32,000 nt of DNA from a bacterium (GCA_043825615.1 JBDRRS010000007.1:1-32000); one strand, 5' to 3'. Counted from the stretch's first letter, positions 6,001-23,110 are shown. The notes: generated by a model from the sequence alone, not told the origin. Numbers and translations: made by a program.

Positions 6001-6179
6001 ACGTGACCAATTATATAAACATTACCACCGTTATCTACTGTAACTCCATAACCACCATCACTGTTATTCCCAGAACCGTTAAATGTTGTGCTTGAATAAT
6101 TGAATATAGCATGTGCACGTGATATAAATATAAAAAGTAGAAAAACCAGGATGGGAAAAACTATCCTTGAGATTGCCAC
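1..6179 (-). CDS. Very large secreted/surface mosaic protein, C-terminus beyond left edge: N-terminal hydrophobic segment, beta-propeller-like 'GYGVAVDTSGNVYVTG' repeats, FN3-like domains, second propeller-like repeat block, G8-like region, parallel beta-helix repeats
   Basis: Reverse-complement reading in one constant frame (codons at 3k..3k+2, checked near 5040, 3783 and 1203): 'VAISRIVFPILVFLLFIFISRAHAIFNYSSTTFNGSGNNSDGGYGVTVDNGGNVYIIGHV...'. It is absent from the ORF track because no stop lies inside the window. Start codon uncertain (GTG at 6179 or upstream TTG). Confidence 0.8.
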   Translation of the reverse strand, partial: MAISRIVFPILVFLLFIFISRAHAIFNYSSTTFNGSGNNSDGGYGVTVDNGGNVYIIGHVYESATNNIWVAKYNSNLILQSSTTFNGYGNNDDFGYGVAVDTSGNVYVTGNVSGGVETDIWVAKYNSNLILQSSITVGGSNSSGYGVAVDTSGNVYVTGSVYYGANKNIWVAKYNSGLILQSSTTINGSGNGNDSGNGIAVDTNGNVYVTGSVYESDFNTWLAKYNSNLILQSSKTIEGSYNDYGYGITVDNNGDVYVTGVFGEPNNPIIWVYKYNSNLIYQTGTTFDGRNAANSTDYGRGVTTDESGNVYVTGNIDNGTNSDIWLAKYNSNLVLQSSMSINGSGNGSDSGYGVAVDTSGNVYVTGSVGEATYNIWLSKHDIGVGGDTTPPADVTSFTATPGDTQATLVWTDPADADLDKILIVRNTNNSFTAPSDGTAYTDGAASGPGGDWCENVAKAAETLLVTSLSNGTKYYFKAYSFDTSTNYATGVSTNVTPAAVAASSTYTFTTGAGTDKWAYDAVDTSNPPTSGPALTGQIEITDYTNIDSANDVYHSSAIYSTNMSFLNCKFTIGEATSSISQIYVEWDGYNTAFNSTSTQIRIWDFNSSAWIFLDGYDGEAEVVLSSAIASNFGNYISGGYLYAYAVGRGAGIGDPPSVLYSDFIKVVVTYTGDATPPSAISNLTALTGDSGGTVKLKWTAPGDDGTGGGNIQGYIVKYATNVIGSGGWDFYDARVSTYMDADGWTPGTFGQEETGRVVSGLNGGTTYYFAIKAYDDASNLGTWPDISVYQSGFASINCARAQDGGGAPGSFTGNFSSAGGADYDGNSTDFAYGVAVDTISGGGPYIYMVGASSNGASGFDWVIIKYDSNGNKIASAVYDGDAHGHDRAYAVAVTPAGEVFVAGYESNATDTDIRVIKFDSSLVLVSSAVYDSTYADAAYGIAISPYGEIVVVGATNNGANNDYIIRRYNFSLGFLGSETLNGAANGDDVANAVAIDSNGNVIVTGESSNGADSDYFTVKYNAILDTLISSVTHAGPSSMDDSAQGVAVNSTDDIIVTGWIWDGADRDIFTIKYDNALSVLSSATYGNAINNDAARAVAVDGQNNVIVAGYQLNGSYNDYVTLKYSADLSTIFSSATYDSSYDDSVKGVAVGVSSAVYVTGYVSNSGTTGDTDFATMRYYLAGDSDPGPPAAVSDLAAYTGLSEGEVDLTWSAPGDDGWTDPLPAGSQFRIQYATYSTPVWMYQSAQVIKSTSGVSPTTQVSYTVTGLNAGATYYFKIWHADEVPNWSELSNGATAHAQVPQGGIWKSIQGGDWAAGAIWDKGSPPNPASVVEISHTVTFNMFNAECSSVTVYDFGTLQFDGAVSTRSLTIAGNLKIMGGVTGGKFLMPPNTGYISTLKIKCASAGQYGIIVQNGGVFDVRGNSMNFWRTTLSVQANSAQNQLTTTDSTGWKLGDVVTIGASSLSNTTEERTITLISGNVITLNSTLSVNHSAGAEVVNLLRNCVITSATSTYKAYIRNLSQTEANFNMKYVEASYLGVNSSGKYGITFDGSGTMGKINYCSIYNGGYDGIFFNSTSSNTITNNSCYSFYDGILLNNGVNNTLNNNSCYSNSQFGIHLLNTSSNTLSNNGCYSNSSYGIRVDNSSNNIFDNNSCYSNTSGIYFANTSNANVVDGNSCYLNSATGIYFYGSSSGTVINNSCYSNSEYGILVYYNSDSNTISNNSCYLNTFHGIFLFDSFNNTLSNNRCYSNSSGFRLNNGSNNIFINNSCYSNSQYGIFTRNSADNLVVDCKLGKEGNNTSGDIGYEAGFVSKLILKNCNLYSPTKVETSGIDTAGSYLISYNQDGSTGTTKIWGDYNIPSGSTGTFNYAGLLYVSAATQPNSTLKGTGSISSPQTSDGKTLTEFWEVKCTDASATSIFSVKRGTGNVLLLDTPSNAQELSEYTSSDRGVSFTVQTGDYQIGDAFYFVTVSSSNDAGVQKIIEFSSSTVGTRLNVEVGGTITMEGTPAEPTISTSSASGGYYGFASSGTMNASNYKFFNLNSEGLKLQGTAVDVVDLSSGT
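800..1520 (-). repeat. Parallel beta-helix (NosD-like) 22-24 aa repeats
   Basis: Repeated 'NTLSNNGCYSNSSYGIRVDNSSNNIFDNNSCYSNTSGIYF' with about 66-72 bp periodicity ('gagtarcaactgttatt'). Confidence 0.8.
2650..3760 (-). repeat. Second block of beta-propeller-like repeats inside the surface protein
   Basis: Repeated motif 'AVAVDSNGNVIVTGESSNGADSDYFTVKYN', 'GVAVNSTDDIIVTGWIWDGADRDIFTIKYD', 'AVAVDGQNNVIVAGYQLNGSYNDYVTLKYS'. Confidence 0.7.
5035..6110 (-). repeat. N-terminal tandem beta-propeller-like (SBBP-type) repeats
   Basis: Near-identical units '..NGSGNGNDSGNGIAVDTNGNVYVTGSVYESDFNTWLAKYNSNLILQSS..'; the DNA is also repetitive ('ccagttacatagacattaccactggtatctactgcaactcc'). Confidence 0.8.
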
Positions 6180-6522
6180 GCCGGCGGCTCGCAATAACAA
6201 AGAAGGGAAAATACAGCTATGCCTATCGGTAATCAGGGTTCTAATCCTTTTTCTTAATTTACCATATCCTGAAACTATTCTTTTAATCATTTAAAACCAA
6301 AATCCCATTTTTTATTTTTCCTCACCATCTGGTAATATTATATACTCAATTACTCCAGTTTGTCCACATGCTTTATGTCACAATGTGACAGAAGATACAA
6401 AATCCTAAAAGATAACTTTCGCATATAATTTTTTATAAATATTCATTCAACCATGTTCTCGCGTCCTTGACCCGAAAAATCAAAAAAGCAGGGCGCCATT
6501 TTCCATTTTCTTCATTTTCCGA

Positions 6523-6738
6523 TTATACTGATACCGGCGCAAGACTAAATACGCGCGCAAACTTCGTTGCTCTCCGGAGGTCGCCTTCTCGTAAAGATTC
6601 TCTCACCTCATCCAACTTTTGGGCATCTTCGAGAGAGAGATACGGCGACCAACCATCTCCCGTGTCAAGAATTTCCACATCAACTTCTGCGGCATACTCA
6701 CCTTCGCGCACCAGTTTAACATGATGTCTCTTTGTCAT
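6523..6738 (-). CDS. Small antitoxin-like protein, partner of the downstream DUF4258 protein
   Basis: 71 aa '[71 protein letters not shown]'; its ATG overlaps the stop of the gene at 6735-7073. Confidence 0.6.
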
Positions 6739-7073
6739 ACCCGCCTCCTCGTGAAATTATTCGTCCACATATTCGCATCTGGTCTATATGCTGTTACGAC
6801 TACGGCAGGAGAAGACGCACCTTTAGGAATTCCCCAAACCACATGAATCGGACGTGCATCTCTGTCTTTTTCCAAGACAAGAACACACGGACCCTTATGA
6901 TATTCAGGATAATCTTCTACCACAATCCCATTATTCACACCCGTTATTATATCTTTTACGAAAATACCGTCTTCTGCTATCTCATCGTAGCCATGATCGG
7001 AGACCTTAATCTCACGCCTTGCCACTAACTCTTTGATTCTTGCAAACATTTTCACTTTCACCGGTTTAAACAT
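6735..7073 (-). CDS. DUF4258 domain-containing protein (putative toxin)
   Basis: '[76 protein letters not shown]' is a typical DUF4258 pattern; 4-nt overlap with its partner. Confidence 0.7.
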
Positions 7074-7189
7074 ATCTATCGTTTGCCAAAAAGCAAATCC
7101 CGCACTTCCCCTTTTCTCCTTCTTTTCTTTCTACGTCATCCAAAACCGGAACCGTCCCCATTTTTCTACATTCCTCTCGCTGTATATAA

Positions 7190-7279
7190 CTATTTTGTGC
7201 GATACGGATGTTTTTTTATGTAAGAATTAAACCAGATGCCAAAAATTATCATTCCGATCAGCAATATTATAGCCCCCAT
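7190..7279 (-). CDS. Micro-ORF, 29 aa predicted single-TM peptide
   Basis: MGAIILLIGMIIFGIWFNSYIKKHPYRTK; preceded by GGAGG overlapping the end of the upstream micro-ORF. Confidence 0.35.
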   Translation of the reverse strand: MGAIILLIGMIIFGIWFNSYIKKHPYRTK

Positions 7280-7366
7280 CTAATCCTCCTTCTCATACTG
7301 GTAATAGCCTATTAGTGCAAATGTTATAGCCATCACCAAACTCAAAACTCCTATAACTACTGCCAT
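7280..7366 (-). CDS. Micro-ORF, 28 aa predicted single-TM peptide
   Basis: MAVVIGVLSLVMAITFALIGYYQYEKED; its stop directly abuts the next ATG. Confidence 0.35.
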   Translation of the reverse strand: MAVVIGVLSLVMAITFALIGYYQYEKED

Positions 7367-7431
7367 AATTAGGATTTTCTAATCTTGTAACACATCCATA
7401 AAAACCCACACCGAAGCAAATTTTTGATAAG

Positions 7432-7641
7432 TCAAGATAATAATCTTTCAAACCCTGCCTCCTTTACCTCCATTCCCGTTTTCCACGTTCCCCGTTTTGC
7501 CACAAAAAAAATTTCCAATTTCATATCCTTTTCCGACATCACTCTTTCCTTCGCATAGGAGCCGAAAATATATGCCATTACTATTTCAGGTCTCGTCTGA
7601 AAATACTCTTTTAACGGCTTAATCCTATTCTTTACTATCAT
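7432..7641 (-). pseudogene. Truncated/frameshifted MNT-type nucleotidyltransferase fragment
   Basis: 'IVMAYIFGSYAKERVMSEKD' matches the MNT-domain GSYAxGxxxxxSD motif, then the reading diverges into low-quality sequence with no DxD continuation. Confidence 0.5.
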
Positions 7642-7782: not shown

Positions 7783-9693
7783 TCAAAAACTGTAGTACAG
7801 GCGGAAAAGGACGCCGGAAGAATCGTAATCGTCCGAATCGTCCTTCGTTTTGTTCCCTTCAAAAGTGTAGCCGCCCGTCAGAGAAAGATTTTTCTTCACC
7901 TTGTAAGTCACTTCGGCGGAGTAATTCGTCGTGTCCGTTAAAATGTCCTCTGCGGAAAGAGGCGTCGGCAGTTTTTCCCTTGTGGTGAGCGACCCGTATA
8001 TGAAAAAACCTAAGTCGCGGGTTATGCTGATGTTTGAGCCGAGCGAAAAAGACGTTATTTCGTCCTCGGAACAGTCGTTAAGATTTTTTGTATTATTTGC
8101 GGTATATCCGAGGTCAACGGAAACCGCGGCAATTATTTTACCCGAATATGTCACCGAAAACCCGTTCGTATCCAGGTCATTGCCGGTCGCGGTGGATGCA
8201 TAATTCCGGAACTGCGAGCGCGAAAAATTTGCGGCGACCACCTGGTTTTTGAAACAATAATTAATCCCGCAGCTGAGACCCGCTGTTTCGTTGTTCAGCA
8301 CCGTCAAGGAACTTCCCTCAACTTTGTTTATGCTGGATGCCGCGCTGATTCCGGGAAGGCCCGAAGGCGTAAGCTGTATGCCGCCCTGCAAAATTGTCTG
8401 GTCCGTCGTAACCACTTCGGGGTCGTTGTCAAGATTATCTTCGGTCGCCTGGTATCCGCAATTCAATCTCAAAAATGCAACAGGATAATAATTAAGAGAG
8501 GTGTCCATGCCTGCCCTGTCGGGATAAATTCCCGGGCTTGCTAAATTCAGGAAATCGGGTTCTATTCTCTGATATTTGCCGCGCACATCAAAGGTCTTGC
8601 GGTAAACCCGCATTTCAAATCTGTAGGCCGTTCCCGGCGTTGACGCGCTGTTTTCATAAGACAGCGACGACGGGTTATAGAAATTTTCCTGACGGCCGCT
8701 GCGGGCGTACTCCCCCTGCACATTCAGGAAAGAACACGACCACTGGAGTTCGGAACTCATAACGGTGTTATCCACCGCCTGATTGGAAGGGCCGGGATTG
8801 CTGACGGAACTTTCCGAATCATACGTCGTCACGCCGGATACTTTTAGACCGAAGTCGGCGGGCAATTTTACTTTTGCGCTCATGCCTCCCGTATATCTCG
8901 CATACACGCCGTTGGTTGAGGCGTCGCCCTCCGCCGCCTCCTGCGTCCTTATGTAACACCCCGAAAAATCGGTATAATCCGTCCTGTAATTCAGATTCGT
9001 CCCGCGTCCTGTAAGAGAATAAATTGACAAAGGAGAAAAATCGGGCATGACGTCTCCTGCGGACAACTTATACCTGTCTGAAAAAACCGAAAGAAAAAGC
9101 ATATCAAGATCGAAACTGTCGTCTTCCGTTGAGTACGCATTCGAGTTGAAAATCAGAGTTTTCCCGTAAATTCTTCCTAAAAGATTCGTCGCCAGAGACC
9201 CCTGATAACCGCTCCTCTGCGTATTTTTATACGATAAAGAAACATTGCCGTTCAGAAAAACGGGCCGCACCGGTTTTTTCTCCAGCGCCGACGCCTTTAC
9301 ATTAAAATCGTAAAAATCACTCGTCAGGATGTTCTGCCCTTTTTTGTAAAGCATCACGCGATACCGGTACCTCCCCGTATAGGAAGAGGGTATTCCGTAA
9401 GTTACAAGCAGGAGCGTCGAACCGCCGGGCTGCACTTCCCCGCTTATGTTTTCCGGCGGCGTTTTCTGAATGTAATTACCCTCCGAATCAAACAGTTCAA
9501 TGCGGCAGTTTACATCTGCCGGCGGCCATTTTACCGTCTCCATATTCAGAAGAATAACCTGAAAAGTAATGTTTTCGCCCGCTTTGGCGGGGTCGGGAGC
9601 GGCGACGGAGAGCTGTATCTGCGCCGGCGACTGGGCGAAAATAATACGGGCAAGAAAAAAAACGCACAAAAAAATATAAAATCTGTTCTTCAT
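7783..9693 (-). CDS. Outer-membrane beta-barrel protein with N-terminal Ig-like periplasmic region
   Basis: 636 aa with signal peptide 'MKNRFYIFLCVFFLARIIFAQ', alternating amphipathic strands, and a terminal 'LFRLYYSF' (aromatic C-terminus typical of barrels). Confidence 0.7.
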   Translation of the reverse strand: MKNRFYIFLCVFFLARIIFAQSPAQIQLSVAAPDPAKAGENITFQVILLNMETVKWPPADVNCRIELFDSEGNYIQKTPPENISGEVQPGGSTLLLVTYGIPSSYTGRYRYRVMLYKKGQNILTSDFYDFNVKASALEKKPVRPVFLNGNVSLSYKNTQRSGYQGSLATNLLGRIYGKTLIFNSNAYSTEDDSFDLDMLFLSVFSDRYKLSAGDVMPDFSPLSIYSLTGRGTNLNYRTDYTDFSGCYIRTQEAAEGDASTNGVYARYTGGMSAKVKLPADFGLKVSGVTTYDSESSVSNPGPSNQAVDNTVMSSELQWSCSFLNVQGEYARSGRQENFYNPSSLSYENSASTPGTAYRFEMRVYRKTFDVRGKYQRIEPDFLNLASPGIYPDRAGMDTSLNYYPVAFLRLNCGYQATEDNLDNDPEVVTTDQTILQGGIQLTPSGLPGISAASSINKVEGSSLTVLNNETAGLSCGINYCFKNQVVAANFSRSQFRNYASTATGNDLDTNGFSVTYSGKIIAAVSVDLGYTANNTKNLNDCSEDEITSFSLGSNISITRDLGFFIYGSLTTREKLPTPLSAEDILTDTTNYSAEVTYKVKKNLSLTGGYTFEGNKTKDDSDDYDSSGVLFRLYYSF

Positions 9694-9695
9694 CT

Positions 9696-10400
9696 TTATG
9701 CGATAAAAGCAATCCCTGCAAAAATAAAAGCGGGAAACAAAACGCTTCCGAGAATCCTGTTGAACACGGGAAAATTAAAATCATATCTCTTCAGAGCTGC
9801 GGCCGAGCAGAGAAACAAAACAAGCGGGCCCGCGAACACGTTTCCCCCGCAGTCGGCCCAGATATTCCTTCTCACGAGGATAAAGAAAAAAAGAGCGCTT
9901 CCGGAAATCAGCAGCAAAATTATTCTTGAAACATTAAAACCTGCGCCGGAAAAAACATGGACCGCATGATAAAGCGCCTCGGATTTGTAAAAAAGAAAAC
10001 TGAAAACCGCTATAAAAACGCCCGCTGTGACATAGAAATAATTCAATTTGAGATGAACTTTGAGAACGCGTAAATAGAAATTGTATAAAATTTTCTTGAT
10101 GTCGCGCTTCTCCGCCTTTTGCTCGGAGGTTTTAAGAAGCCGTTTCTTAAAATTGTCGATAACCGGAGACGTAACCTCGTAAGACATCACCTCGCGGAGT
10201 TCTTTATCCGTTGACTCATCCCCCGAAGAGATGGATTCCATCGCGCGCCGGCGCTCTTCGCCGGCTTTTTTCGTGTCATCCGCCCGGCGGGCCAGCGACG
10301 ACTGCAGAACACCCGCCTTCTTTTTTATAATACCCTGAATTTTCCCGCCGAAAATGGCAATTCCGCAAAGAACAATAACAAAAACTACTCTGAATTTCAT
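9696..10400 (-). CDS. Hypothetical integral membrane protein
   Basis: 234 aa with an N-terminal signal/TM segment, a charged region and several C-terminal hydrophobic helices; 2-nt spacing to neighbours. Confidence 0.6.
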   Translation of the reverse strand: MKFRVVFVIVLCGIAIFGGKIQGIIKKKAGVLQSSLARRADDTKKAGEERRRAMESISSGDESTDKELREVMSYEVTSPVIDNFKKRLLKTSEQKAEKRDIKKILYNFYLRVLKVHLKLNYFYVTAGVFIAVFSFLFYKSEALYHAVHVFSGAGFNVSRIILLLISGSALFFFILVRRNIWADCGGNVFAGPLVLFLCSAAALKRYDFNFPVFNRILGSVLFPAFIFAGIAFIA

Positions 10401-10402
10401 AA

Positions 10403-10711
10403 TTACATCAAACCCGCCGTCCTGCCCACGTCATGGATAAAAGCCAAACCGTTGCCGGGTTTATCAAGTTTCCCGACGGCAACAATCCTGTCGAAGACCT
10501 CATCAACACGCTCGCCGGGAACAACCGTCATAAAGACCTCTTTTTCCGGATTTATGAAAGCCCTCCTGAAAAAACCGAGTTTCTGCCTGACCCCCGTTCC
10601 CCGCGCGTAGAAAATCGTCGCGCCCGAAACATTCATTTTCAAAATTTCCTTCACAATTTTATTGGCTTTTCCCCTGTCCACAACGCACGTAATCAATTTC
10701 AGATTCTCCAT
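10403..10711 (-). CDS. PII-like (GlnB-fold) protein
   Basis: 'MENLKLITCVVDRGKANKIVKEILKMNVSGATIFYARGTGVRQKLG...EKEVFMTVVPGERVDEVFDRIV' resembles PII-family strand/helix organisation. Confidence 0.65.
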   Translation of the reverse strand: MENLKLITCVVDRGKANKIVKEILKMNVSGATIFYARGTGVRQKLGFFRRAFINPEKEVFMTVVPGERVDEVFDRIVAVGKLDKPGNGLAFIHDVGRTAGLM

Positions 10712-10770
10712 TCATCCTCCGTCATATTTACTCTTTTATACTGCACTGTGAAAATGACCGTTGCCTTTTA

Positions 10771-11085
10771 TTAATCCCTCTTGTAAAACCCGAACGCCTT
10801 CTCCACGTCCTGAACAAAAACAAAACCCCTCGCCGTTTCCTTCAGATTGGCAAGTTCAATAATTCTGCCGAACATATCATCCGTTTTTTCCTCCGGCACA
10901 ACCGTCATAAAGACATCTTTTTCCGGCTCTATCAACCTTCCCTTAAGCCCGATTTTCTCCCTCACTCCCGTTCCGACGCCGCGGAAACTCGTCACGCCAG
11001 AAATGCCCATTTTCAAAATTTCCTTTATTATACCGTCCGCTTTTCCCTGCTCTACAATGCACGTTATCAACTTATACTTTTCCAT
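10771..11085 (-). CDS. Second PII-like protein, tandem paralogue
   Basis: 'MEKYKLITCIVEQGKADGIIKEILKMGISGVTSFRGVGTGVREKIG...EKDVFMTVVPEEKTDDMFGRIIELA' is clearly homologous to 10403-10711. Confidence 0.65.
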   Translation of the reverse strand: MEKYKLITCIVEQGKADGIIKEILKMGISGVTSFRGVGTGVREKIGLKGRLIEPEKDVFMTVVPEEKTDDMFGRIIELANLKETARGFVFVQDVEKAFGFYKRD

Positions 11086-11097
11086 ATCTTCCTCCTT

Positions 11098-11140
11098 ATC
11101 AGGGCGGCGGGAGGCTTGCCCCGTTGGGGGTGGCGTCCAT
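11098..11140. repeat. Copy 1 of a dispersed GC-rich mini-repeat (TTATCAGGGCGGCGGGAGG...GGTGGCGTCCAT)
   Basis: Direct sequence match to 14199-14228. Confidence 0.7.
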
Positions 11141-12015
11141 TACCGCAGACCTCCCTTCTTTCTTTTCCTTTCCTGCTTCTCCAGCGATTTAAGGAACTTT
11201 TTTATGTCCTTATTATCAGGATTTATCTTCAGCGCATCTTCCCAGTTTTTTTTCGCCGCGGAAAAATTTTTAAGCGCGTAATAAGCCGAGCCCCTTCTCA
11301 TCAGGGCAAGCTCCTTGTTTTCGTCCAGCGCCAGAGCTCTGTCGCAGGCAATAATCGCCCCCGTATAATCCGCCTTATAAATGGAATCCAGCGAACTCTG
11401 GAGCAGCTGATGCAGCAAATCCATTCCTTCTATGAGTTTTATCTTGGACCTTTCTTCGGGATAAACGCTTTCAAAATAAGAAAGAATGCCGGTTATCTGT
11501 TCCCGCCGGCGGTCGTCCTTATTTATCTGTCCCGCGTATATCAGCGCGTCAAAAATCAAACCCGGTTTTTTCTCCAGATACGCCACGATGCCTTTTCTCA
11601 CATACTGCAAGACCTTATCCTGACCGGAAGAGTCCTTTACCAGCGAAGAAATTTTTTCAAGTTTTTCTTTTTTTTCAGCGACGCCGGGATAAGTCGGGTC
11701 AATGTCCATTATGCGTTTAGCCGTATCGGAAGCCGCAAACCACCTGCCTGCCATTATCTGTTCTTCAAACGCCCTGACTTTCGGATTGAGTTCGTCCTCT
11801 ATCTTCTGTCTGATGAACTTTATCATCTTTAACGGCGGTGTCTGCTCCGGGTCAATTTCAAGAATTCTCTGCCAGCAGCGTATTGCATCGCTGTATTTCC
11901 CCGCCGTGTAATATTTTACGGCGGAATTATACAGACCTTTTATGTCTTCTCCGGCAAAAGCAATAATGGGGACGGTTCCTAATATGCACAATCCCACCAA
12001 TTTCTTAAACATCAA
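11140..12015 (-). CDS. Secreted/periplasmic tetratricopeptide-repeat protein
   Basis: Signal-like 'MMFKKLVGLCILGTVPIIAFAGEDI', then TPR-like 'YNSAVKYYTAGKYSDAIRCWQRILEIDPE' and 'LMRRGSAYYALKNFSAAKKNWEDALKINPDN'. Confidence 0.8.
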   Translation of the reverse strand: MMFKKLVGLCILGTVPIIAFAGEDIKGLYNSAVKYYTAGKYSDAIRCWQRILEIDPEQTPPLKMIKFIRQKIEDELNPKVRAFEEQIMAGRWFAASDTAKRIMDIDPTYPGVAEKKEKLEKISSLVKDSSGQDKVLQYVRKGIVAYLEKKPGLIFDALIYAGQINKDDRRREQITGILSYFESVYPEERSKIKLIEGMDLLHQLLQSSLDSIYKADYTGAIIACDRALALDENKELALMRRGSAYYALKNFSAAKKNWEDALKINPDNKDIKKFLKSLEKQERKRKKGGLR

Positions 12016-12064
12016 TCGCCAAACTCCATTAAAATCATCTCCTCGGATAATTAGGAACCGTCCC
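11969..12064. repeat. Inverted pair GGGACGGTTCCTAAT (11969-11983) / ATTAGGAACCGTCCC (12050-12064)
   Basis: Perfect 15-nt reverse complements bracketing the start of the TPR gene; further core copies at 7148-7161 and 15615-15626. Confidence 0.8.
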
Positions 12065-12726
12065 TAATTCTTACTAATTCTTAAAATGCTTATTTCAATG
12101 CGGCGGTTCTGAGCCCGTCCTGATGCGGCGGCGTTATCCGCAACGGGATAATATTCGCCGAAACCGTAAGCGGAAAATCTTCCCGGATGTATTTTTTCAA
12201 CATCAATAAAATATTTTATAACGCTGAATGCCCGGAGGGTTGAAAGTTCGAAATTGCCGCCGGGCAGCTGCCTGAACGAAATATTATCGGTGTGCCCCGC
12301 AACATTTATTTTATTATCCGTTCCTTTTAAGACCTCTGCGACTTTATGCAAAGTCAGATGACTGCTTTTTTTAAGGTCGGAAGAACCCGAATCAAAAAGA
12401 ACGGGGCTCTCCATCATTATTCTTATTTTCCGCGCATCCATTTTGATGACGCCTTCGCCGTCCCTGAATATCTCCGATATTTTTTCAGCCATTTCAACAT
12501 CCTTCATAGAACTTTTTTCCCGCGAAACACCCGCCTGGAGACGCGCGATAACACCTTCGTATCTGACCCCCGACTTCAATGAAATGACATAAAGTATCAG
12601 AAAAAAAATCATACAGAGAAGCATCATCGTGCCGTAAGGCGTTTTCCACGAAGAGGGATCAAAACCCTTCCCGTATTTTACCGCCCTGTCGGTATGCCTT
12701 CTCCCTGAGCCTGCAATCACGCTCAT
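12064..12726 (-). CDS. MotB/OmpA-family protein with one N-terminal TM lacking the MotB aspartate
   Basis: TM 'TPYGTMMLLCMIFFLILYVISL'; OmpA-like domain 'PVLFDSGSSDLKKSSHLTLHKVAEVLKGTDNKINVAGHTDN...AASGRAQNRRIEISI'. Confidence 0.8.
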   Translation of the reverse strand: MSVIAGSGRRHTDRAVKYGKGFDPSSWKTPYGTMMLLCMIFFLILYVISLKSGVRYEGVIARLQAGVSREKSSMKDVEMAEKISEIFRDGEGVIKMDARKIRIMMESPVLFDSGSSDLKKSSHLTLHKVAEVLKGTDNKINVAGHTDNISFRQLPGGNFELSTLRAFSVIKYFIDVEKIHPGRFSAYGFGEYYPVADNAAASGRAQNRRIEISILRISKN

Positions 12727-13391
12727 TCAATATCCTGCTTGAGCAGCACAATTTCAATTCGCCGGTTTTTCTGGCGCGACGTCGGGGTCTCGTTGGAAAA
12801 CCTTGGAAAATACTCTCCGTATCCGGCGGCGACAAACCTTTCCGGCGGGAAACCCCTGCCGATAAAATAATCGATAACGTTTACCGCCCGGCGGGCGGAA
12901 AGTTCCCAGTTCGAACGGAAAAGAGCGCTCTTAATCGGCACATTATCCGTGTGTCCTTCGACAATCACTTTATCGTCCGTCATAGATAAAGTTCTCGCTA
13001 TTTCATTCAGTAATTTCTTCGTTTCATCTTTTACCAGCGCGCCGCCGGAATCAAAAAGCACCGGCGTGTTCAGGACAAGCCGTATCTGGCTTTCATTAAC
13101 CTCCAGGGTGGAGTATTTTTTAAGATTGCCTTTCTGAAGCAGTTCTTCCAAATTGCTCTGCGTTTCATCCTCCGCAAACTTTTTCAGAACATTATCCGCC
13201 TTATGTCTTAAGACCACATCCTTCTTCCCGGCGCTGCTCAGCGCGGAATGCATCTGGCGCTGCTGCGATTGGGAAAGGCGCGTAAAACCGTACAGCAGGA
13301 GAAAAAAAAGCATAAGATTCGTCGTCATATCGCAGAACACGGTAAGCCAGATGGGTTCTCTTTGAACTTTCCTGAACGCCTTAAAAATCAT
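12723..13391 (-). CDS. MotB-like stator protein with conserved TM aspartate and OmpA-like peptidoglycan-binding domain
   Basis: 'REPIWLTVFCDMTTNLMLFFLLLYGF' (compare MotB 'W..tfsDlmtlLl.FFvlL'), then 'VLFDSGGALVKDETKKLLNEIARTL...VEGHTDNVPIKS...NRRIEIVL'. Confidence 0.82.
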   Translation of the reverse strand: MIFKAFRKVQREPIWLTVFCDMTTNLMLFFLLLYGFTRLSQSQQRQMHSALSSAGKKDVVLRHKADNVLKKFAEDETQSNLEELLQKGNLKKYSTLEVNESQIRLVLNTPVLFDSGGALVKDETKKLLNEIARTLSMTDDKVIVEGHTDNVPIKSALFRSNWELSARRAVNVIDYFIGRGFPPERFVAAGYGEYFPRFSNETPTSRQKNRRIEIVLLKQDIE

Positions 13392-13418
13392 TTACAAATA
13401 TTCTGCGCGGCCCGTCTT

Positions 13419-14186
13419 TCATTTCTTCCGCTTCTCCCTGATGCGTTTTGAGAGAAACGCCTCAAGACGGTGCAAGGTTATGGACGGGACTTCCTGATTG
13501 AGTATTGATTCTATTCCTTCGGCTATCAGTTCCTTGGCAAGAATCTCATCGTTCGAGTACTCTCCGAGTTTCAGCGAAGCGGGTAAAAAAAGAAAATTCG
13601 CGCCGAAAATACCGTAAAATGTCGTCGTAACGGCAATAGCCATGGAAGCACCCATACTCGCCGGGTCCTGCAGATTTTTCAGAACCTGAATAACCCCTAT
13701 AAGCGTGCCCAGTAAACCGAATATGGGAGAAAAAGTAGCCATTGCCTGCAAGACCCCCGATGTCCTTTCATGCCTCTGGGCGACGGAAAAAATTTCCTGC
13801 CTCATGTTTTCAAGAATTATTTCCTTTTCCACGCCGTCGGATATTTTTTTAACGTTGGCGGAGAGGAATCTGTTCTTTGCCTGAACCGGCGAATCAGACA
13901 GAACCATAAAACCGTTTCTCTTAGCCGCGGCGGACAGAACCGCAATGTCTTTTACGAGTTTGTTTATATCCGTCGGAGGAGGAGGAAAAAGTATGAGTTT
14001 AACCGCAGACGGAACCTGCTTTATGCTGCGGAAAGGAAATGCAATTAACGTCGAACCGAGAGTCCCTCCGAACACAAGAATAGCGGCATCCAAATTAAAA
14101 AGGAGATAAACGACATCCCCGTGAAGCATGACCAAATAAACGGCGCCGGTTCCGAGAGCAAAACCAAGAACAGTCATCAGGTCCAT
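13419..14186 (-). CDS. MotA-like stator channel protein
   Basis: 'MDLMTVLGFALGTGAVYLVMLHGDVVYLLFNLDAAILVFGGTLGSTLIAFP' and 'MATFSPIFGLLGTLIGVIQVLKNLQDPASMGASMAIAVTTTFYGIFGANFLFLPAS', typical MotA features, 255 aa. Confidence 0.88.
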   Translation of the reverse strand: MDLMTVLGFALGTGAVYLVMLHGDVVYLLFNLDAAILVFGGTLGSTLIAFPFRSIKQVPSAVKLILFPPPPTDINKLVKDIAVLSAAAKRNGFMVLSDSPVQAKNRFLSANVKKISDGVEKEIILENMRQEIFSVAQRHERTSGVLQAMATFSPIFGLLGTLIGVIQVLKNLQDPASMGASMAIAVTTTFYGIFGANFLFLPASLKLGEYSNDEILAKELIAEGIESILNQEVPSITLHRLEAFLSKRIREKRKK

Positions 14187-14198
14187 ATTTTTCCTTCC

Positions 14199-14228
14199 TT
14201 ATCAGGGCGGCGGGAGGGTGGCGTCCAT
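14199..14228. repeat. Copy 2 of the GC-rich mini-repeat
   Basis: TTATCAGGGCGGCGGGAGGGTGGCGTCCAT. Confidence 0.7.
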
Positions 14229-14229
14229 A

Positions 14230-15630
14230 TTAACCCCGCTTTCCCCGCGGCGGGGCGTCTTCGTCCGCCTGCGGCGTGGCGAGCAAACCGTCTTTTCTCA
14301 ATTTGTCCGCAACGCGGGCGAGCGCTTTTTTATCTTCTCTTAACCTCGCGGGCCCGGGAGATGCGCCAAGTTCTATTTCTTCCTTCAGACGCGTCGCAAT
14401 GCCCTCCGGAAGTTTCTCCAGAATGCCGTTTCTTACGCTTTCTTCCAGCGTCCGGAGCACGTTCGCAAACGCCACCGGCGTGAAACTCCGGCTCAGCAGA
14501 AGAATATCCCCGGAAGTCATATCCGCAAGAGACCCCGCGCGAAAAACAGCCGACCTCAACTCATCCGCAAAAAGCGAGTCGCTCTGCGCTATGAAATCGA
14601 GATAAGAATCCATTTCTTCGTCGCCCAAACCCTCCAGAATTTCTTTAACGACTTCTTTCCCGCCGACCATAAAATCCATCTTCTGCCTGAGATGCTCTTC
14701 CCATTTAAGAACCTCGTCCGGGGGCAGAGTTCTCGTCTGCGCAAGTTTTGACAATGCCTCGCGGGCCTGCGCAGGCTCCAAACCCGACAGGACTTTATTC
14801 GCCACCTGCGGAGCGTAATTGATCAAAACGGCAATGTTTTCGGGCTTTTCCTTCTTAAGAAGAAAAAGAAGTTTATCCGTATTTTCCTCGTTTACAAAAG
14901 AAAAATGCTTTTTGACGCCCTCTCTTTCTCCGCCGGCAGCGCCCATCCCTGCAGCCGGAGCGGCTGCGCTCACAGAGGAACTAAAAGCCGCCGCTGTTTC
15001 GCTTTTTTTCAAAGAACTTTCAAGCGTTTCGGATATAATCCCCGCCGCGCGGGGAAACACGCGCATTCCGAAAACAAAAAGAACCGCTATCAGAATAACG
15101 GCAAGACCTGAAAACAGCAGACCCCATAAATGCGGCGGATATATGATATCCGACCACTTGAAGGGATTTTCTCTGAAATTCATTTTCTTGATGATGAGCG
15201 CATCGCCGCGGGCGGCCTCAAGCCCGAGGACGCTCGTCGAGACCTCTCTTATTATATTAACCATGCTTTCGGGAAGGCCGTTGTCCACGATAATCTGCGC
15301 AGTGAGTTTCTTTATGTTTTTCGCCGTGTCTCCGAGGTCAAGACTCGCCAGCCCGAGGCCGAGTTTCTCCTGCAGGGGAACCCCCGGCAGGACGACCGCC
15401 TCCTCATCCTCATCTTCCGAACTGCTGCTTATCAACTGAACGTTTATAACGATTAACAGCTTGTCCGTCCCTGTTATTTCGGTCAATATCCGTCTTAACC
15501 TTTCCTCAAGATTCTTTTCTATGGCGATTTTTGTTTCTATGTCGGAACCTTGTTTTGCAAAGGCATTGCCCGGCAGCGCAGGAAGGAAAAAACAGAAGAG
15601 CGAGAAAAGAATAATGGGGACGGTTCCCAT
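14230..15630 (-). CDS. FliF C-terminal (RBM3-like)/TM/FliG-like fusion, membrane-anchored rotor protein
   Basis: Signal peptide; 'IEKNLEERLRRILTEITGTDKLLIVINVQL' and 'REVSTSVLGLEAARGDALIIKKMNF' (FliF 'iG...RGD.v.v...F' pattern); TM 'LWGLLFSGLAVILIAVLFVFG'; FliG-like 'PENIAVLINYAPQVANKVLSGLEPAQAREALSKLAQT' and 'LAARG-type ...ASPGPARLREDKKALARVADKLRKDGLL' (compare FliG-C 'GPVRLSDVEEAQ..I..ia..Le.eGei'). Confidence 0.72.
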   Translation of the reverse strand: MGTVPIILFSLFCFFLPALPGNAFAKQGSDIETKIAIEKNLEERLRRILTEITGTDKLLIVINVQLISSSSEDEDEEAVVLPGVPLQEKLGLGLASLDLGDTAKNIKKLTAQIIVDNGLPESMVNIIREVSTSVLGLEAARGDALIIKKMNFRENPFKWSDIIYPPHLWGLLFSGLAVILIAVLFVFGMRVFPRAAGIISETLESSLKKSETAAAFSSSVSAAAPAAGMGAAGGEREGVKKHFSFVNEENTDKLLFLLKKEKPENIAVLINYAPQVANKVLSGLEPAQAREALSKLAQTRTLPPDEVLKWEEHLRQKMDFMVGGKEVVKEILEGLGDEEMDSYLDFIAQSDSLFADELRSAVFRAGSLADMTSGDILLLSRSFTPVAFANVLRTLEESVRNGILEKLPEGIATRLKEEIELGASPGPARLREDKKALARVADKLRKDGLLATPQADEDAPPRGKRG

Positions 15631-15635
15631 TACTT

Positions 15636-16136
15636 TTAAAACTCCTCCGCAACAACACCCGCTATCATCCTGACCGTTTCAATGTCCTGCTGGGAAAGGA
15701 CTTCCTTCGACGTGAGTTTTTTCGCGTTAATAACGCCGATTGCCCTGCCGTTTTTTATCACCGGCACGCTTAAGCCGGAAGTTATATTCTCATACTTTGC
15801 CAAATGCGCAAAACTTCTGTGCTGGGAAACTTCGCCGACGATAAGAAACGGTTTTTTTTCTGAAACGGCGCGGCCGGCGACCCTCTCGCCGACTTTGATT
15901 TTTATCCCGAGTTTCTTGTTCGCGCTCTCGGCGTCGGGTTCTGCTGCCGCCACAATTTCTATCTCATCCGACGTTTCATCCCTGAGCATAAAAGAGCATC
16001 CGTCGGCTTTTATGAAACCGGCAAGAATCTTCAGTGCGACAACAACCACTTTCCTTTTTTCCGCTCCGAGCTTTTCATCCGACACAAAAACAGGCATAAC
16101 ACCCCCTTCCCCCCGGCGATTCCGCCGGAGGAACAA
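15636..16136 (-). CDS. GAF-domain protein
   Basis: 'ADGCSFMLRDETSDEIEIVAAAEPDAESANKKLGIKIKVGERVAGRAVSEKKPFLIVGEVSQHRSF...SVPVIKNGRAIGVINAKKL' is a clear GAF pattern; the real start may be the internal MPVFVSDEK. Confidence 0.82.
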   Translation of the reverse strand: MFLRRNRRGEGGVMPVFVSDEKLGAEKRKVVVVALKILAGFIKADGCSFMLRDETSDEIEIVAAAEPDAESANKKLGIKIKVGERVAGRAVSEKKPFLIVGEVSQHRSFAHLAKYENITSGLSVPVIKNGRAIGVINAKKLTSKEVLSQQDIETVRMIAGVVAEEF

Positions 16137-16190
16137 GTAAGAATAATCACTTTACTCTTTCCCCGTGAAAGGCATTATATAAATTATAAT

Positions 16191-17018
16191 ATGGGAAATC
16201 AAATCTACTTAGGTGGTAAAATGTTTTTTGATTTTGTAAAATACAAAAATATGAAATTGGAAAAACAGATTGCGAACTGGATTAAAGGACAGGTAAAAAA
16301 AGCAAAGGCAAAGGGTATTGTCGTCGGTTTGAGCGGCGGGGTGGACTCATCCCTCTGCGCGGCTCTGTGCAAAGAAGCCCTCGGTAAAAAACTTTTAGGG
16401 CTGATAATGCCCTGCCATTCGGACACCGTGGATACCGCAGACGCTCTGATGTTTTCCAAAAAATTCAACATCCGGACGAAAAAAATCGACCTGACAAAAA
16501 CTTATGACTCCCTGACCCTGCTGTATCCTTCCGGCGGCAAAACAGCGCTGGCAAACATAAAGCCGCGTCTCAGGATGATTACGCTGTACTACTTTGCCAA
16601 TTCTTTGAATTACCTGGTCTGCGGAACGGGGAATAAGAGCGAAGCAATGATGGGCTACTTCACCAAATACGGAGACGGCGGCGCCGACATTCTGCCGCTG
16701 GGCGATATTCTGAAGACGGAAGTGCGGCACCTCGCCCGTAATATGGGCATACCAAAAAAAATAATTGACAAAGCCCCTTCGGCGGGCCTCTGGAAAGGAC
16801 AAACCGACGAGGGGGAAATGAAGATTACCTACGATAACCTTGACGCTCTTTTATCAAAATTATCTCCTTATCCGGATGGCGGGAGGCTGAAAGTGCGCCG
16901 TGGCGTGGTGGCGTCCGAATTAAAAAAATGGTTGAAAACAAAAAACAAACTGGTAAAAAGAAAAATAAAACAGTCGCGGCACAAACTGTCCCCCCCCCCT
17001 GTTTTCCGGAAATCGTAA
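16191..17018 (+). CDS. nadE: NAD+ synthetase (ATP-PP loop)
   Basis: 'GIVVGLSGGVDSSLCAALCKEALG', 'VCGTGNKSEAMMGYFTKYGDGGADILPLGDILKTEVR', 'KAPSAGLWKGQTDEGEM'. Likely true start 16221 (AGGTGG spaced before ATG). The C-terminal part is atypical. Confidence 0.9.
   Translation: MGNQIYLGGKMFFDFVKYKNMKLEKQIANWIKGQVKKAKAKGIVVGLSGGVDSSLCAALCKEALGKKLLGLIMPCHSDTVDTADALMFSKKFNIRTKKIDLTKTYDSLTLLYPSGGKTALANIKPRLRMITLYYFANSLNYLVCGTGNKSEAMMGYFTKYGDGGADILPLGDILKTEVRHLARNMGIPKKIIDKAPSAGLWKGQTDEGEMKITYDNLDALLSKLSPYPDGGRLKVRRGVVASELKKWLKTKNKLVKRKIKQSRHKLSPPPVFRKS
16869..16917. repeat. Copy 3, divergent, of the GC-rich mini-repeat, inside nadE
   Basis: TTATCCGGATGGCGGGAGGCT...GTGGTGGCGTCC. Confidence 0.55.
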
Positions 17019-17049
17019 CGGGGTGGTTTTCGGATAAAAAAAACTTCTA

Positions 17050-18018
17050 TTATTTAGACGGACTTTCTCCGGGAACAAACGGCGTCGTTACCCTGTCTAT
17101 ATCCATGGGTATCAATGCTATCTCAATCCTTCTGTTTTTCGTTCTCCCCTCTACCGTGTCATTTGTATCAATGGGTTTGGTGTCGGCATATCCTGCCACC
17201 GAAATAAATATTGAGTCAATACCCACTTTGTCTATCAGATATCTGGCTATGTTCGTCGCTCTCGCTGTTGAAAGCTCCCAGTTTGTGGGGTATTTGCCCC
17301 TTAGTTTGGGTCCAATCGGCACATTATCCGTATGTCCTTCAATACGGATTTGTTTGTCTTTGATATTCTTTAAAATATTCCCGACCCTGTTGAGGACCTG
17401 TTTGCCTTCTTTCCGGACTTCAGCCTCTCCCAGCGGAAACATCAGTTTATCCACGATGTTAACCGACAACTTGTCTTTAAGCTGAGTAATTTTTATCTGT
17501 CCGTCCTGCACTTCCTTTTCCATATCCTGGACAAGATTCTCGTATGTTGACTTCAATCTGCCGACTTCGTCTTCTTTTGCTTTTGATACCGCGTCTATAC
17601 TGTCCTGCAGTTCGATATTCATGGCATTCGCAGCGGACAGCTGTTTCTTTAAATCCAATACGGTTTTTTCTTTTTCCCGTTTACTAACGGTAAGGTCCGC
17701 TATCAATTTGTCTTTTTCGCTTTTTTTGGCCTCCAGCACGGATATGAGATTACTGCTGTCTTTCTGCAAAATTGAATACTGCTCTTTGATTTCCGCCGCC
17801 TCAAGTTCGAGTTTCTGTTTCTCGTTAGAGACCGTCTGCAGGCTTTCTTCCGCCTGCTTCAACTTTGTTATAAGTTCGTCATTCCCGTTACGAAGAACTT
17901 CCGTTTCCTCTACTTTCATCCGGTACTTCCCGGTCGTAACGCATCCGACCAAAAAAACGCAAAATAAACCCATGGCTAAATTCTTAACGCTTCTTTTCAT
18001 CTTCTCTCCTTTTAGCAA
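17050..18018 (-). CDS. OmpA/MotB-domain lipoprotein with long coiled coil
   Basis: Lipobox 'CVFLVGC'; coiled-coil heptads; 'IRIEGHTDNVPIGPKLRGKYPTNWELSTARATNIARYLID...GRTKNRRIEIALIP'. Confidence 0.85.
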   Translation of the reverse strand: MLKGEKMKRSVKNLAMGLFCVFLVGCVTTGKYRMKVEETEVLRNGNDELITKLKQAEESLQTVSNEKQKLELEAAEIKEQYSILQKDSSNLISVLEAKKSEKDKLIADLTVSKREKEKTVLDLKKQLSAANAMNIELQDSIDAVSKAKEDEVGRLKSTYENLVQDMEKEVQDGQIKITQLKDKLSVNIVDKLMFPLGEAEVRKEGKQVLNRVGNILKNIKDKQIRIEGHTDNVPIGPKLRGKYPTNWELSTARATNIARYLIDKVGIDSIFISVAGYADTKPIDTNDTVEGRTKNRRIEIALIPMDIDRVTTPFVPGESPSK

Positions 18019-19708: not shown

Positions 19709-19767
19709 GAGGGACGCTTCGCAGTCCCGTTTATTATAATCTGCGTTCTTCAAGCGACGGTTTTTAT

Positions 19768-20901: not shown

Positions 20902-20923
20902 CCGCCGCAGTGAGAACCTGTTC

Positions 20924-21850
20924 TTAAAATAATTTTAGAACATCCTTCATATCCGCATAAGCAACGCCTATCACTGTATCCGCCGCTCCGTAGTAAACAA
21001 GCAATTGGCCGTCTTTTTCGACACAGCCGCAGGTAAAAGTTACATTGGAAACATCCCCTATTTTTTCATATTCTTCACCGGGTTCAAGCACCGGTTCCGG
21101 GTGGCGGTATACGACTTTAGTCGGATCTTCAAGATCCAGGAAAGCAATACCTAACCGGTAGCACATCTTATTATCAACCGCATGATATACGATAAGCCAG
21201 CCCTTTTCTGTTTTTATGGGCGTGGCCCCGCCGCCGATCTTCCATTTTTCCCATCCGTGGCCCTGAGGATACATGACGACTGTATTATCTCTGAATTCTT
21301 TTAAATCTTCCGAAAAACCTATCCATATGTGCTGCGGGATCCTGTGCATCAGGACATATTTTCCCTTGATTTTTTCAGGGAACATCGCCGCATCTTTATT
21401 GTCCGTAAATGGAAAAGGATATATCCTTTCGCTCCAATTCCATCTCTTATTCAGAAAATCATCTACCGAAATAGTGGAAATCGCTATCTGGACCCATTTA
21501 AGCTGCTTCTCCATTCCGGGAACCATACCGTATGCCGAATAAGTCATATAAAGCCGGTCGCCGATTTGCGCAATTCTGGGATCTTCCACGCCGAAACAGT
21601 CCACATCAGAATCCATGGATACGCCAAAAATCGGCTTATCCAACCGCTCATCAATAACAAACCCGTCTTTTGAAGAAGCGTATCCGCATCTTGAAATACC
21701 GCCCTTGCAGCCTCTGGCCCTGTAAACAAGGTGCACTGTACCGTTAATATTAACTGCCGCCGTATTGAAAACGACAAGCGCCTCCCAATCATGTTCAATT
21801 ATCGGTTTCAATATCGGGTTCTTTTTGTACCTTTTTAATGTAAATGTCAT
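20924..21850 (-). CDS. GH130-like glycosidase/beta-mannoside phosphorylase family protein
   Basis: 'YKKNPILKPIIEHDWEALVVFNTAAV', 'VEDPRIAQIGDRLYMTYSAY', 'NKDAAMFPEKIKGKYVLMHRI', 'GGGATPIKTEKGWLIVYHAV'. Confidence 0.85.
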   Translation of the reverse strand: MTFTLKRYKKNPILKPIIEHDWEALVVFNTAAVNINGTVHLVYRARGCKGGISRCGYASSKDGFVIDERLDKPIFGVSMDSDVDCFGVEDPRIAQIGDRLYMTYSAYGMVPGMEKQLKWVQIAISTISVDDFLNKRWNWSERIYPFPFTDNKDAAMFPEKIKGKYVLMHRIPQHIWIGFSEDLKEFRDNTVVMYPQGHGWEKWKIGGGATPIKTEKGWLIVYHAVDNKMCYRLGIAFLDLEDPTKVVYRHPEPVLEPGEEYEKIGDVSNVTFTCGCVEKDGQLLVYYGAADTVIGVAYADMKDVLKLF

Positions 21851-21874
21851 AATAACTCCTTTCTGACGATCAAC

Positions 21875-23107: not shown

Positions 23108-23110
23108 TTT

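Follow-up and report, generated by a model that had tools for sequence, protein, structure and literature searches.

A gene cluster of Elusimicrobiota that appears to encode an ion-driven machine of the cell envelope with parts taken from the flagellar motor

We describe a block of ten genes on the minus strand (positions 7783–16136) of a 32-kb stretch of bacterial DNA (GCA_043825615.1, JBDRRS010000007.1:1-32000), the whole of which is called the window below. Judging from evidence that is computational throughout, the block would encode a flagellum-independent, ion-driven rotary machine, specific to Elusimicrobiota, that sends energy to the outer membrane for giant or C-terminal domain (CTD)-type surface proteins. 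We give this reading a probability of about 0.5. The machine seems to represent a new, ion-driven type of envelope apparatus made of flagellar motor parts, and we infer its function (gliding, surface-protein transport or envelope remodelling) from the genomic context.

A preliminary description of the window had listed ten minus-strand genes with gaps of −4 to about 59 nt. Recomputation of the open reading frames (ORFs) returned exactly the same coordinates: the genes are tightly packed and are separated, from the GAF gene to the barrel gene, by 5, 43, 27, −4, 48, 54, 59, 2 and 2 nt. The gene labels were upheld as well, by profile searches (Pfam, NCBIfam) together with signal peptide and hydropathy predictions and a model of the barrel. 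The extent of the block needs an amendment, as its ten genes stand but a conserved downstream gene for a giant surface protein lies outside the interval first proposed. A scan for promoters and terminators gave site counts not above shuffled expectation, so the limits of the operon are drawn from gene spacing alone.

A FliF-FliG fusion as the candidate rotor

The second gene of the block (14230–15630, minus strand) encodes a protein of 466 aa in which an RBM3-like domain of FliF, a transmembrane helix and the middle and C-terminal domains of FliG (FliG_MC) are joined. This assignment is based on Pfam and NCBIfam searches, a family profile and an AlphaFold2 (AF2) model. Pfam recognizes FliG_M (7e-8) and FliG_C (3e-7) and, weakly, YscJ_FliF_C (0.01), a domain for which distant members of the family exceed the Pfam threshold (P0169 at 9e-10, P0097 at 1e-8). 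When the profile of 23 family members was compared with the PDB, it matched FliG-MC of T. maritima (1lkv) at 9e-43 over residues 243–454; SpoIIIAG and the final stretch of FliF RBM3 were matched weakly.

In the AF2 model, the protein begins with a signal peptide followed by a periplasmic alpha-beta-beta-alpha-beta domain of the RBM3 type, which bears the invariant motifs LPGVP and RGD and carries a disordered insert of about 40 aa between its first two strands. Then come a single transmembrane helix (about 166–191), a linker and FliG_MC (243–454), with a predicted local distance difference test (pLDDT) score of 85–93. Foldseek searches with this model placed FliG structures on top, followed by the RBM3/collar rings of FliF (probability 1.0, target TM-score 0.5–0.6) and then PrgK. 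Neither the profile nor the model contains FliG_N, and a covalent link to the RBM domain and the membrane helix stands in place of this FliF-binding domain. RBM1, RBM2 and the N-terminal transmembrane helix of FliF are not present in the protein either. Because it lacks these parts, the fusion is neither an ordinary FliF nor an ordinary FliG. It had first been described as a FliF-C/FliG-like fusion, and the profile searches gave no unrelated family, in agreement with the 1lkv match and the Foldseek result.

Residue correspondences with E. coli FliG were taken from a visual alignment with the E. coli and Thermotoga proteins. The GG hinge is kept, and the torque helix (ATRLKEEIEL, against ADILRDDLAN) has E417 and E418 at the positions of E. 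coli D288 and D289. R414 is near-invariant in the family. In a wide alignment of 25 sequences with a mean identity of 23%, the invariant or near-invariant positions are the periplasmic motifs LPG.P and RGD, the GG hinge and the Glu equivalent to D289; the hinge and this Glu are at least 90% conserved across the wide family.

The family is far larger in an exhaustive hidden Markov model search than in a word-indexed one. At E ≤ 1e-30, we found at least 437 representatives (clusters at 50% identity), and the best 150 of the 437 mostly match the profile from end to end. Every member with a named source belongs to Elusimicrobiota or Endomicrobiales. One protein (P0012) is labelled Candidatus Omnitrophota, yet it is nearly identical to a protein of Elusimicrobia HGW-2 (P0011); its label is probably a binning or labelling inconsistency and not a sign of a second phylum.

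A stator of the flagellar type

The three genes that follow the fusion encode a MotA-like protein of 255 aa (13419–14186, minus strand; MotA_ExbB, 9e-24) and two MotB-like proteins, MotB1 with 222 aa (12723–13391, minus strand; MotB_plug 2e-8, OmpA 6e-19) and MotB2 with 220 aa (12064–12726, minus strand; MotB_plug 1e-6, OmpA 7e-18). The two motB genes overlap by 4 nt.

MotA matches the MotP/MotA/PomA models from end to end at 1e-42 to 1e-48, and the ExbB/TolQ models at 1e-3. Its cytoplasmic domain is short and PomA-like, with a torque interface of the flagellar type, and MotA's conserved residues include the two prolines of the channel, a basic pair at the position of PomA R88/K89 and an acid at that of PomA E97. 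The conserved acid of the FliG torque helix and the charged loop of MotA argue together for a working FliG-MotA interface.

MotB1 consists of a transmembrane helix, a plug region and an OmpA-like peptidoglycan-binding domain. Its channel Asp (D21, in the motif FCDMTT) lies in the helix and is kept in all orthologs aligned. MotB2 is a paralog with the same three parts. At the position of the channel Asp, it has Gly in the clade of the window (PYGTMM) and Asn in some relatives, while elsewhere Asp is kept (11 orthologs). The two motifs bear out the original distinction between a MotB-like protein with Asp and another without it. On sequence grounds, MotA and MotB1 are a PomA/MotP-like stator of the flagellar type, with a channel Asp, a plug and a peptidoglycan anchor.

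It is worth asking whether a 5:2 motor of the MotAB type might instead be part of Zorya or of another anti-phage defence system. PADLOC did match its ZorB models to MotB1 (1e-21) and MotB2 (8e-16), and small genes of toxin-antitoxin-like or nucleotidyltransferase type have been inserted close to several of the clusters. The ZorB matches arise, however, because the MotB/OmpA fold is shared: MotA gave no ZorA match, and no other protein of the block had any PADLOC match. There are no nuclease or helicase effectors, and the gene order is conserved phylum-wide in housekeeping surroundings, unlike that of mobile defence islands. With generic ZorB matches only, we rejected a defence system, which we regard as the most improbable of the explanations considered.

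Conservation of the cluster

We fetched 46 related loci, among them 14 from a scan of one genome per species (all metagenome-assembled genomes of Elusimicrobia) and 22 more from a metagenome scan. All loci long enough to contain it (about 40) preserve the order fusion-MotA-MotB1-MotB2-TPR, usually with the barrel gene in addition, over a range of fusion identities between 28% and 94%. The sole exception is L031, which has no homolog of the TPR gene after MotB2. Conservation of the neighbourhood in relatives had been set beforehand as a check on the preliminary description, and the order in these loci speaks in its favour.

Between the window and the 94%-identical locus L001, dN/dS values are 0.10–0.40 for the GAF, fusion, MotA, MotB1, MotB2 and TPR genes; values for GAF against distant loci were ignored as unreliable because of saturation or alignment problems. 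By this measure, the core genes are under purifying selection. A gene order held in about 40 independent loci, together with the low dN/dS, makes the block more than a chance arrangement. In several genomes, the cluster is flanked by housekeeping genes (secA, lnt, prfB, dapA, aroC).

Absence of other flagellar genes

The first description had noted no genes for the export apparatus, rod, hook, filament or FliM/FliN switch in the window. We found none of them among the scanned ORFs of the window, the gene tables of six loci and the scanned neighbours of five loci; these negatives cover the window and the related loci, not the whole host genome.

According to a preprint, flagellar structural genes are missing from most free-living Elusimicrobiota, although motAB, flbD and fliG are present; the role of these was called unclear. 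The same preprint reports complete flagellar gene sets in a few genomes of the phylum and speculates on twitching or gliding. Beyond this passing remark and a chlamydial fusion protein discussed below, our literature search found no described non-flagellar FliG/MotAB system, and neither such a system nor Elusimicrobia is mentioned in a recent survey that treats the phylogeny of MotAB and of its non-flagellar homologs.

The genes might also be a decaying or ordinary part of a flagellar regulon encoded elsewhere in the genome. FliG, FliF, MotA and MotB, and the FlbD of the sister clusters described below, are indeed flagellar families, and the few complete flagellar sets in the phylum would fit such an origin. 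We nevertheless consider it very unlikely. The fusion is devoid of FliG_N, RBM1/RBM2 and the first membrane helix, while the genes are intact, under purifying selection and in constant order over 28–94% identity. In the loci examined, their neighbours are genes for TPR proteins, an outer-membrane barrel, PorV and giant proteins, never flagellar ones, and most free-living Elusimicrobiota with motAB and fliG are, as the preprint states, without flagellar structural genes.

Candidate periplasmic and outer-membrane partners

The sixth gene (11140–12015, minus strand) encodes a secreted TPR protein of 291 aa (TPR_2 3e-17, signal peptide), a candidate periplasmic connector. The TPR gene follows MotB2 in nearly every related locus long enough, with none detected in L031. 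Residues 90–281 are homologous to the TPR half of a protein of the sister clusters in which TPRs are fused to a PorV/PorQ-type barrel (E 1e-17 to 1e-23), and the same holds for the TPR proteins of all clusters of the window's own type (type 1). A link from the TPR protein to an outer-membrane barrel, as first proposed, thus gains support from a homologous TPR domain that is covalently fused to a barrel of the PorV/PorQ family. Two variants deserve mention: in L012 (10592–12505; the same as L022), the TPR protein is enlarged to 637 aa and includes a FecR domain and DUF7354 between blocks of TPRs, and L007 (2968–3537; the same as L025) has, besides the TPR gene usually found after MotB2, an extra TPR paralog between MotA and MotB1.

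The TPR protein weakly resembles the PilW and Tgl models, a secretin fragment lies near one locus, and the above-mentioned preprint speculated on twitching or gliding. These points would suit a motor for another appendage or mode of motility, such as type IV pili or focal-adhesion gliding of the AglRQS kind. We hold this to be improbable, since the fetched loci examined showed no pil genes in synteny with the core, and AglRQS is of the TolQR type without peptidoglycan-binding domains, whereas the stator here is of the flagellar type with OmpA domains.

The last gene of the block (7783–9693, minus strand) encodes an outer-membrane barrel protein of 636 aa with a signal peptide and a C-terminus ending in YYSF. 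Its AF2 model, made with twelve homologs, has a pLDDT of 81 and consists of a periplasmic beta-sandwich (24–133) and a barrel of about 26 strands (146–635). Among PDB folds, the closest is that of MtrB, which forms the 26-strand sheath of the Mtr complex in Shewanella (2e-12, TM-score 0.51), and the next ones are the chaperone-usher pores FimD/PapC, TonB-dependent transporters and LptD. As modelled, the barrel is of a wide type able to accommodate a protein partner; we assign it to none of the matched families. A barrel ortholog adjoins the core in at least 13 other loci, that is, at least 14 with the window. It lies downstream of the core, as in the window, in L002, L004, L017, L019, L027 and L046, and immediately upstream of it in L008, L009, L010, L023, L024, L029 and L045.

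The neighbouring membrane protein (9696–10400, minus strand; 234 aa) has five hydrophobic segments by hydropathy, an N-terminal transmembrane one and four C-terminal ones, with a charged helical region in between. It gave no match in Pfam, NCBIfam or the PDB, and the barrel likewise had no PDB match at the sequence level. Orthologs with 33–35% identity occur in L002, L004, L017 and L019.

The block also includes, as its first gene product, a stand-alone GAF protein of 166 aa (15636–16136, minus strand; GAF_2 4e-12, GAF 2e-10), which from its sequence is likely a small-molecule-sensing regulator, and two PII-like proteins of 104 aa (10771–11085, minus strand; P-II 5e-10, PDB P-II family 3e-3) and 102 aa (10403–10711, minus strand; P-II 1e-8). 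The GAF gene lies directly upstream of the fusion in L001–L005 and L015–L020 and is missing from distant loci; one PII gene is retained in L002, L017 and L019. The GAF, PII-like and membrane proteins are clade-specific accessories, not part of the core. Regulation of the GAF/PII type, as originally suggested, is consistent with the presence of both domains, in genes that are limited to the closer clade.

Sister clusters and their type IX-like associations

Distant members of the fusion family led to a second architecture (type 2) in Elusimicrobiota, represented by L037, L038, L040, L041 and L042. There, the gene of a giant protein (2239 to 6952 aa) is followed in turn by those of a protein of about 540 aa, a fusion of about 640 aa, an unknown protein, FlbD, MotA and a single MotB. 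The larger fusion has the same RBM-helix-FliG_MC arrangement plus additional C-terminal TPRs, and the unknown protein (925–1634 aa) has an N-terminal hydrophobic segment and coiled-coil-like matches. The protein of about 540 aa is a barrel of the PorV/PorQ family (NF033709, 160.8 bits against a cut-off of 90) followed by TPRs; it is this barrel-TPR fusion to which the TPR proteins of the type-1 clusters are related. One of the type-2 loci, L037, has no adjoining MotAB but carries a Roadblock/LC7 gene, nearby PorV genes and an S8 protease with a CTD.

Hallmarks of type IX secretion systems (T9SS) recur around both types. The giant protein of L038 ends in a T9SS type A sorting domain (TIGR04183, 29.9 bits against a cut-off of 23), and L042 has a match to the same model below the cut-off. 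In the type-1 locus L046, a cargo-like protein of 983 aa with a sorting domain (27.8 bits against 23) is encoded upstream of the cluster, and between it and the fusion, directly upstream of the latter, lies a gene for a protein of 528 aa with weak similarity to PorQ. PorV-family genes are found within a few kb upstream of the type-1 clusters L011 and L014, and upstream ORFs in L026 and L036 match the C-terminal sorting-domain segment of the L038 giant protein.

Giant surface proteins beside the clusters

In the window, a single open frame of at least 2096 codons extends from 6290 to 3 on the minus strand and runs off the start of the window. Its product, a giant repeat protein, carries a signal peptide for secretion, and Pfam recognizes SBBP beta-propeller repeats as well as fn3 and right-handed beta-helix/NosD domains in it. 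Because this frame runs off the edge, no ORF of at least 110 aa had been listed in the first 6.5 kb. We also considered the region 1–6500 as non-coding, as a CRISPR array or as a source of structured RNA, and rejected this, as the repeat periods are multiples of three and the giant frame is open; an Rfam scan found only the transfer-messenger RNA (tmRNA) and a tRNA. The giant protein is a candidate cargo or partner of the machine.

Genes for giant secreted proteins lie beside the cluster not just in the window but also in at least 10 divergent type-1 and 3 type-2 loci. A giant ORF lies downstream of the cluster and on the same strand in L002, L007, L008, L009, L010, L011, L014, L017, L019 and L033, and in L010 and L011 it starts only 100–180 nt past the TPR gene. 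The domains differ among the loci (beta-propeller, beta-helix, G8, fn3, Ig), a variety that is expected of diversifying surface proteins.

In the window, a small inserted cassette on the minus strand (6523–7641) separates the barrel gene from the giant gene. It comprises a 69-aa fragment of a nucleotidyltransferase of the Polbeta type (7432–7641), DUF4258 (6735–7073) and an overlapping gene for 71 aa (6523–6738), and it is probably a toxin-antitoxin-like pair. A perfect sigma-70 consensus is present at 7710–7682. In L008, a gene of the PD-(D/E)XK nuclease family is inserted between MotB1 and MotB2 (13165–13539), and toxin-antitoxin-like nucleotidyltransferase genes lie between the TPR and giant genes (15383–17024). 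Small mobile cassettes land repeatedly within or beside these clusters.

Weighing the reading

Several observations weigh against a rotary machine that serves giant or CTD-type proteins. In the rotor itself, the position of E. coli R281 is not basic in the fusion family. The reading also does not explain how a ring whose periplasmic collar is short would convey work past the peptidoglycan as far as the outer membrane. There is no PorV-family gene in the 32-kb window. The C-terminus of the window's giant protein lies past the window edge, so that any sorting domain is out of view, and it was not reached through Logan contigs, which were short only. The sole complete giant protein of a type-1 locus (L002) has no recognisable CTD. 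Finally, no giant gene adjoins the cluster in L012, L027, L031, L032, L034 and L045, most of which are flanked by housekeeping genes.

The last point could be turned in favour of a different role, Tol-Pal-like maintenance or tethering of the envelope, in which the FliG-like ring would be only a docking or regulatory scaffold and not a rotor for cargo. The gene order loosely recalls tolQ-tolR-...-pal-cpoB, the TPR protein is CpoB-like and there are two OmpA-like domains; the housekeeping flanks seen in several genomes would fit too. However, MotA matches the TolQ/ExbB models at only about 1e-3, against 1e-48 for MotP/MotA, and we rejected membership in the Tol-Pal/Ton group on these values. No TolA, TolB or Pal lipoprotein is present, whereas the acid of the torque helix and the charged loop of MotA are conserved. 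The recurrent PorV/PorQ barrels and sorting-domain or giant proteins are unexpected of Tol-Pal, and the phylum is reported to possess a Tol-Pal system of its own. Such a role seems to us unlikely, though less so than those in flagella, pili or defence.

The preferred reading is thus the rotary machine with an outer-membrane output. An ion-driven motor in the inner membrane, coupled through a periplasmic TPR protein to an outer-membrane barrel, had already been suggested for the window, and it is now supported by the identity of rotor and stator, by synteny and by the fusion of TPRs to a PorV/PorQ barrel.

Comparison with known systems

With the flagellar motor, the cluster shares a PomA/MotP-like MotA, a MotB with Asp, plug and OmpA-like domain, a FliG_MC with the GG hinge and the torque-helix acid, and a ring-building domain like RBM3 of FliF. 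It differs in that the flagellum has a separate FliG of three domains (N, M, C), where only FliG_M and FliG_C are found here, and a full FliF with two transmembrane helices and RBM1-RBM2-RBM3. A second MotB with a degenerate Asp, and TPR, 26-strand barrel and giant proteins as partners, are further differences. The combination of TPR-type and OmpA-like partners with a PomAB-like stator may be likened to the T-ring of Vibrio (MotX, Sel1/TPR-like; MotY, OmpA-like) and to PflA/PflB of Campylobacterota. Both are accessories of complete flagella, and MotB2 here keeps a membrane helix and plug of the MotB type. To our knowledge, every use of the FliG-MotA torque interface lies within the flagellum.

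The T9SS and the gliding machinery of Bacteroidota likewise span the envelope and have an inner-membrane ion motor of the 5:2 type, and the sister and related loci share with them PorV/PorQ barrels, TPR proteins and giant or TIGR04183-bearing surface proteins. The motor itself is different, as MotAB would act on a FliG ring here in place of GldL/GldM, and no GldM-like protein was found. We noticed no PorK, PorN or SprA in the loci, for which no genome-wide models were run. The window barrel, MtrB-like with its 26 or so strands, is not SprA-like in size, and the phylum lies outside Bacteroidota.

In architecture, the closest protein is the FliF-FliG fusion of the non-flagellate Chlamydiaceae (Bergeron, bioRxiv 10.1101/023564), in which a shortened FliF (RBM and transmembrane helix) is also joined to a FliG-like cytoplasmic domain. 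That protein has about 330 aa, with a FliG_M-like region and an RBM2-like domain only; it lacks FliG_C and a MotAB partner and is thought to interact with a type III secretion system (bioRxiv 10.1101/023564). By comparison of the descriptions, the protein studied here has RBM3, a complete FliG_MC and a dedicated stator. Engineered FliF-FliG fusions are mentioned as functional in Salmonella in a passage of the same preprint (cited in bioRxiv 10.1101/023564).

Tol-Pal, ExbBD-TonB, AglRQS, Zorya and SiiAB are also ion-driven A5B2 motors of the inner membrane that power work in the envelope. AglRQS shares with our cluster one A subunit and two B-like subunits, and Tol-Pal a TPR protein (CpoB). These motors act through the B subunit, an attached periplasmic transducer or the tail of ZorA, and none of them has a FliG rotor. 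In contrast to Tol-Pal and ExbBD-TonB, the B subunits here are of the MotB type, and no TolA, TolB or TonB domain was found. ZorA and the ZorC/D or ZorE/F/G effectors had no match here (PADLOC), and the TolQ-like AglR with its Glt partners has no counterpart, as no Glt-like neighbours were seen. The composition had been said to differ from Zorya, Tol-Pal/ExbBD and GldLM, and the missing ZorA match, the TolQ/ExbB values of 1e-3 and the missing GldM-like protein bear this out. The loose parallel drawn with AglRQS also stands in its subunit numbers, beside a flagellar-type MotA, OmpA domains and a candidate FliG rotor that set our cluster apart. As far as we know, the other 5:2 ion motors (ExbBD, TolQR, GldLM, AglRQS, ZorAB) all deliver their work by different routes.

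The cluster lacks defining features of the flagellum and of the T9SS/gliding machinery, and it departs from the chlamydial fusion in its FliG_C, its RBM3-like domain and its co-encoded stator. By homology it is nearest to the flagellar rotor and stator, by context to the T9SS and gliding, and by architecture to the chlamydial fusion.

Proposed mechanism

In the machine that we propose, copies of the fusion would assemble into a minimal MS-ring of which a FliG ring is an integral part. Units of MotA5-MotB anchored in the peptidoglycan would turn this ring and, as a FliM/FliN switch is lacking, presumably always the same way. MotB2, with its degenerate Asp, may pair with MotB1 or may serve as a non-conducting scaffold anchored in the peptidoglycan. 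The periplasmic ring would hand its work on, via the secreted TPR protein, to the outer-membrane barrel of about 26 strands, where it could serve the secretion, anchoring or movement of giant or CTD-type proteins of the cell surface. The function would be analogous to type IX secretion or gliding driven by GldLM/PorLM, with a machine assembled from flagellar rotor and stator parts. In the clade of the window, the GAF, PII-like and small membrane proteins may add metabolic or second-messenger control.

A more specific version of this proposal, which we put forward only tentatively and with the odds against it, is that the MotAB-turned ring of FliF-RBM3/FliG, which would have neither a type III export apparatus nor an axial structure, replaces GldLM/PorLM as the source of power for T9SS-like export, anchoring or movement through PorV/PorQ- and MtrB-like barrels.

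Surroundings of the block in the window

A promoter-like site (TTGATT-17-TATAAT; 16174–16202, minus strand) lies 5′ of the GAF gene and constitutes weak evidence for a promoter. Next to the block, the divergently transcribed nadE (16191–17018) separates it from the gene of a 322-aa protein (17050–18018, minus strand) that combines a lipoprotein-like signal (LVGC) with a long coiled coil and a peptidoglycan-binding domain like that of OmpA; L020 has the same neighbour. Carbohydrate genes occupy 18287–26560: a type I phosphomannose isomerase, GT4 glycosyltransferases, a GH130 mannoside phosphorylase, a MatE transporter, a TreT-like synthase and DUF5752. The ORFs at 21875–22975 and 26869–27531 had no Pfam match, and a DUF6036 nucleotidyltransferase is encoded at 27512–28111. 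The tmRNA lies at 28956–29302 (minus strand; tag ANSTLATATC according to ARAGORN) and tRNA-Arg(CCT) at 30417–30489 (minus strand).

Significance

If the reading is true, the FliG-MotA torque interface would for the first time be found in use outside a flagellum, and the ion-driven envelope machines would gain a new class. With five or six proteins, the system is attractive as a minimal one for structural and single-molecule studies of torque. How CTD-type and giant surface proteins are handled by bacteria other than Bacteroidota is a question to which the recurrent link with PorV/PorQ barrels and T9SS sorting domains gives an answer that can be tested. With the cluster, Elusimicrobiota would provide a present-day case of a rotor-stator module working independently of the flagellar secretion core. 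Such a module could then exist and be selected on its own, which would bear on the question of how motor and secretion core came to be joined.

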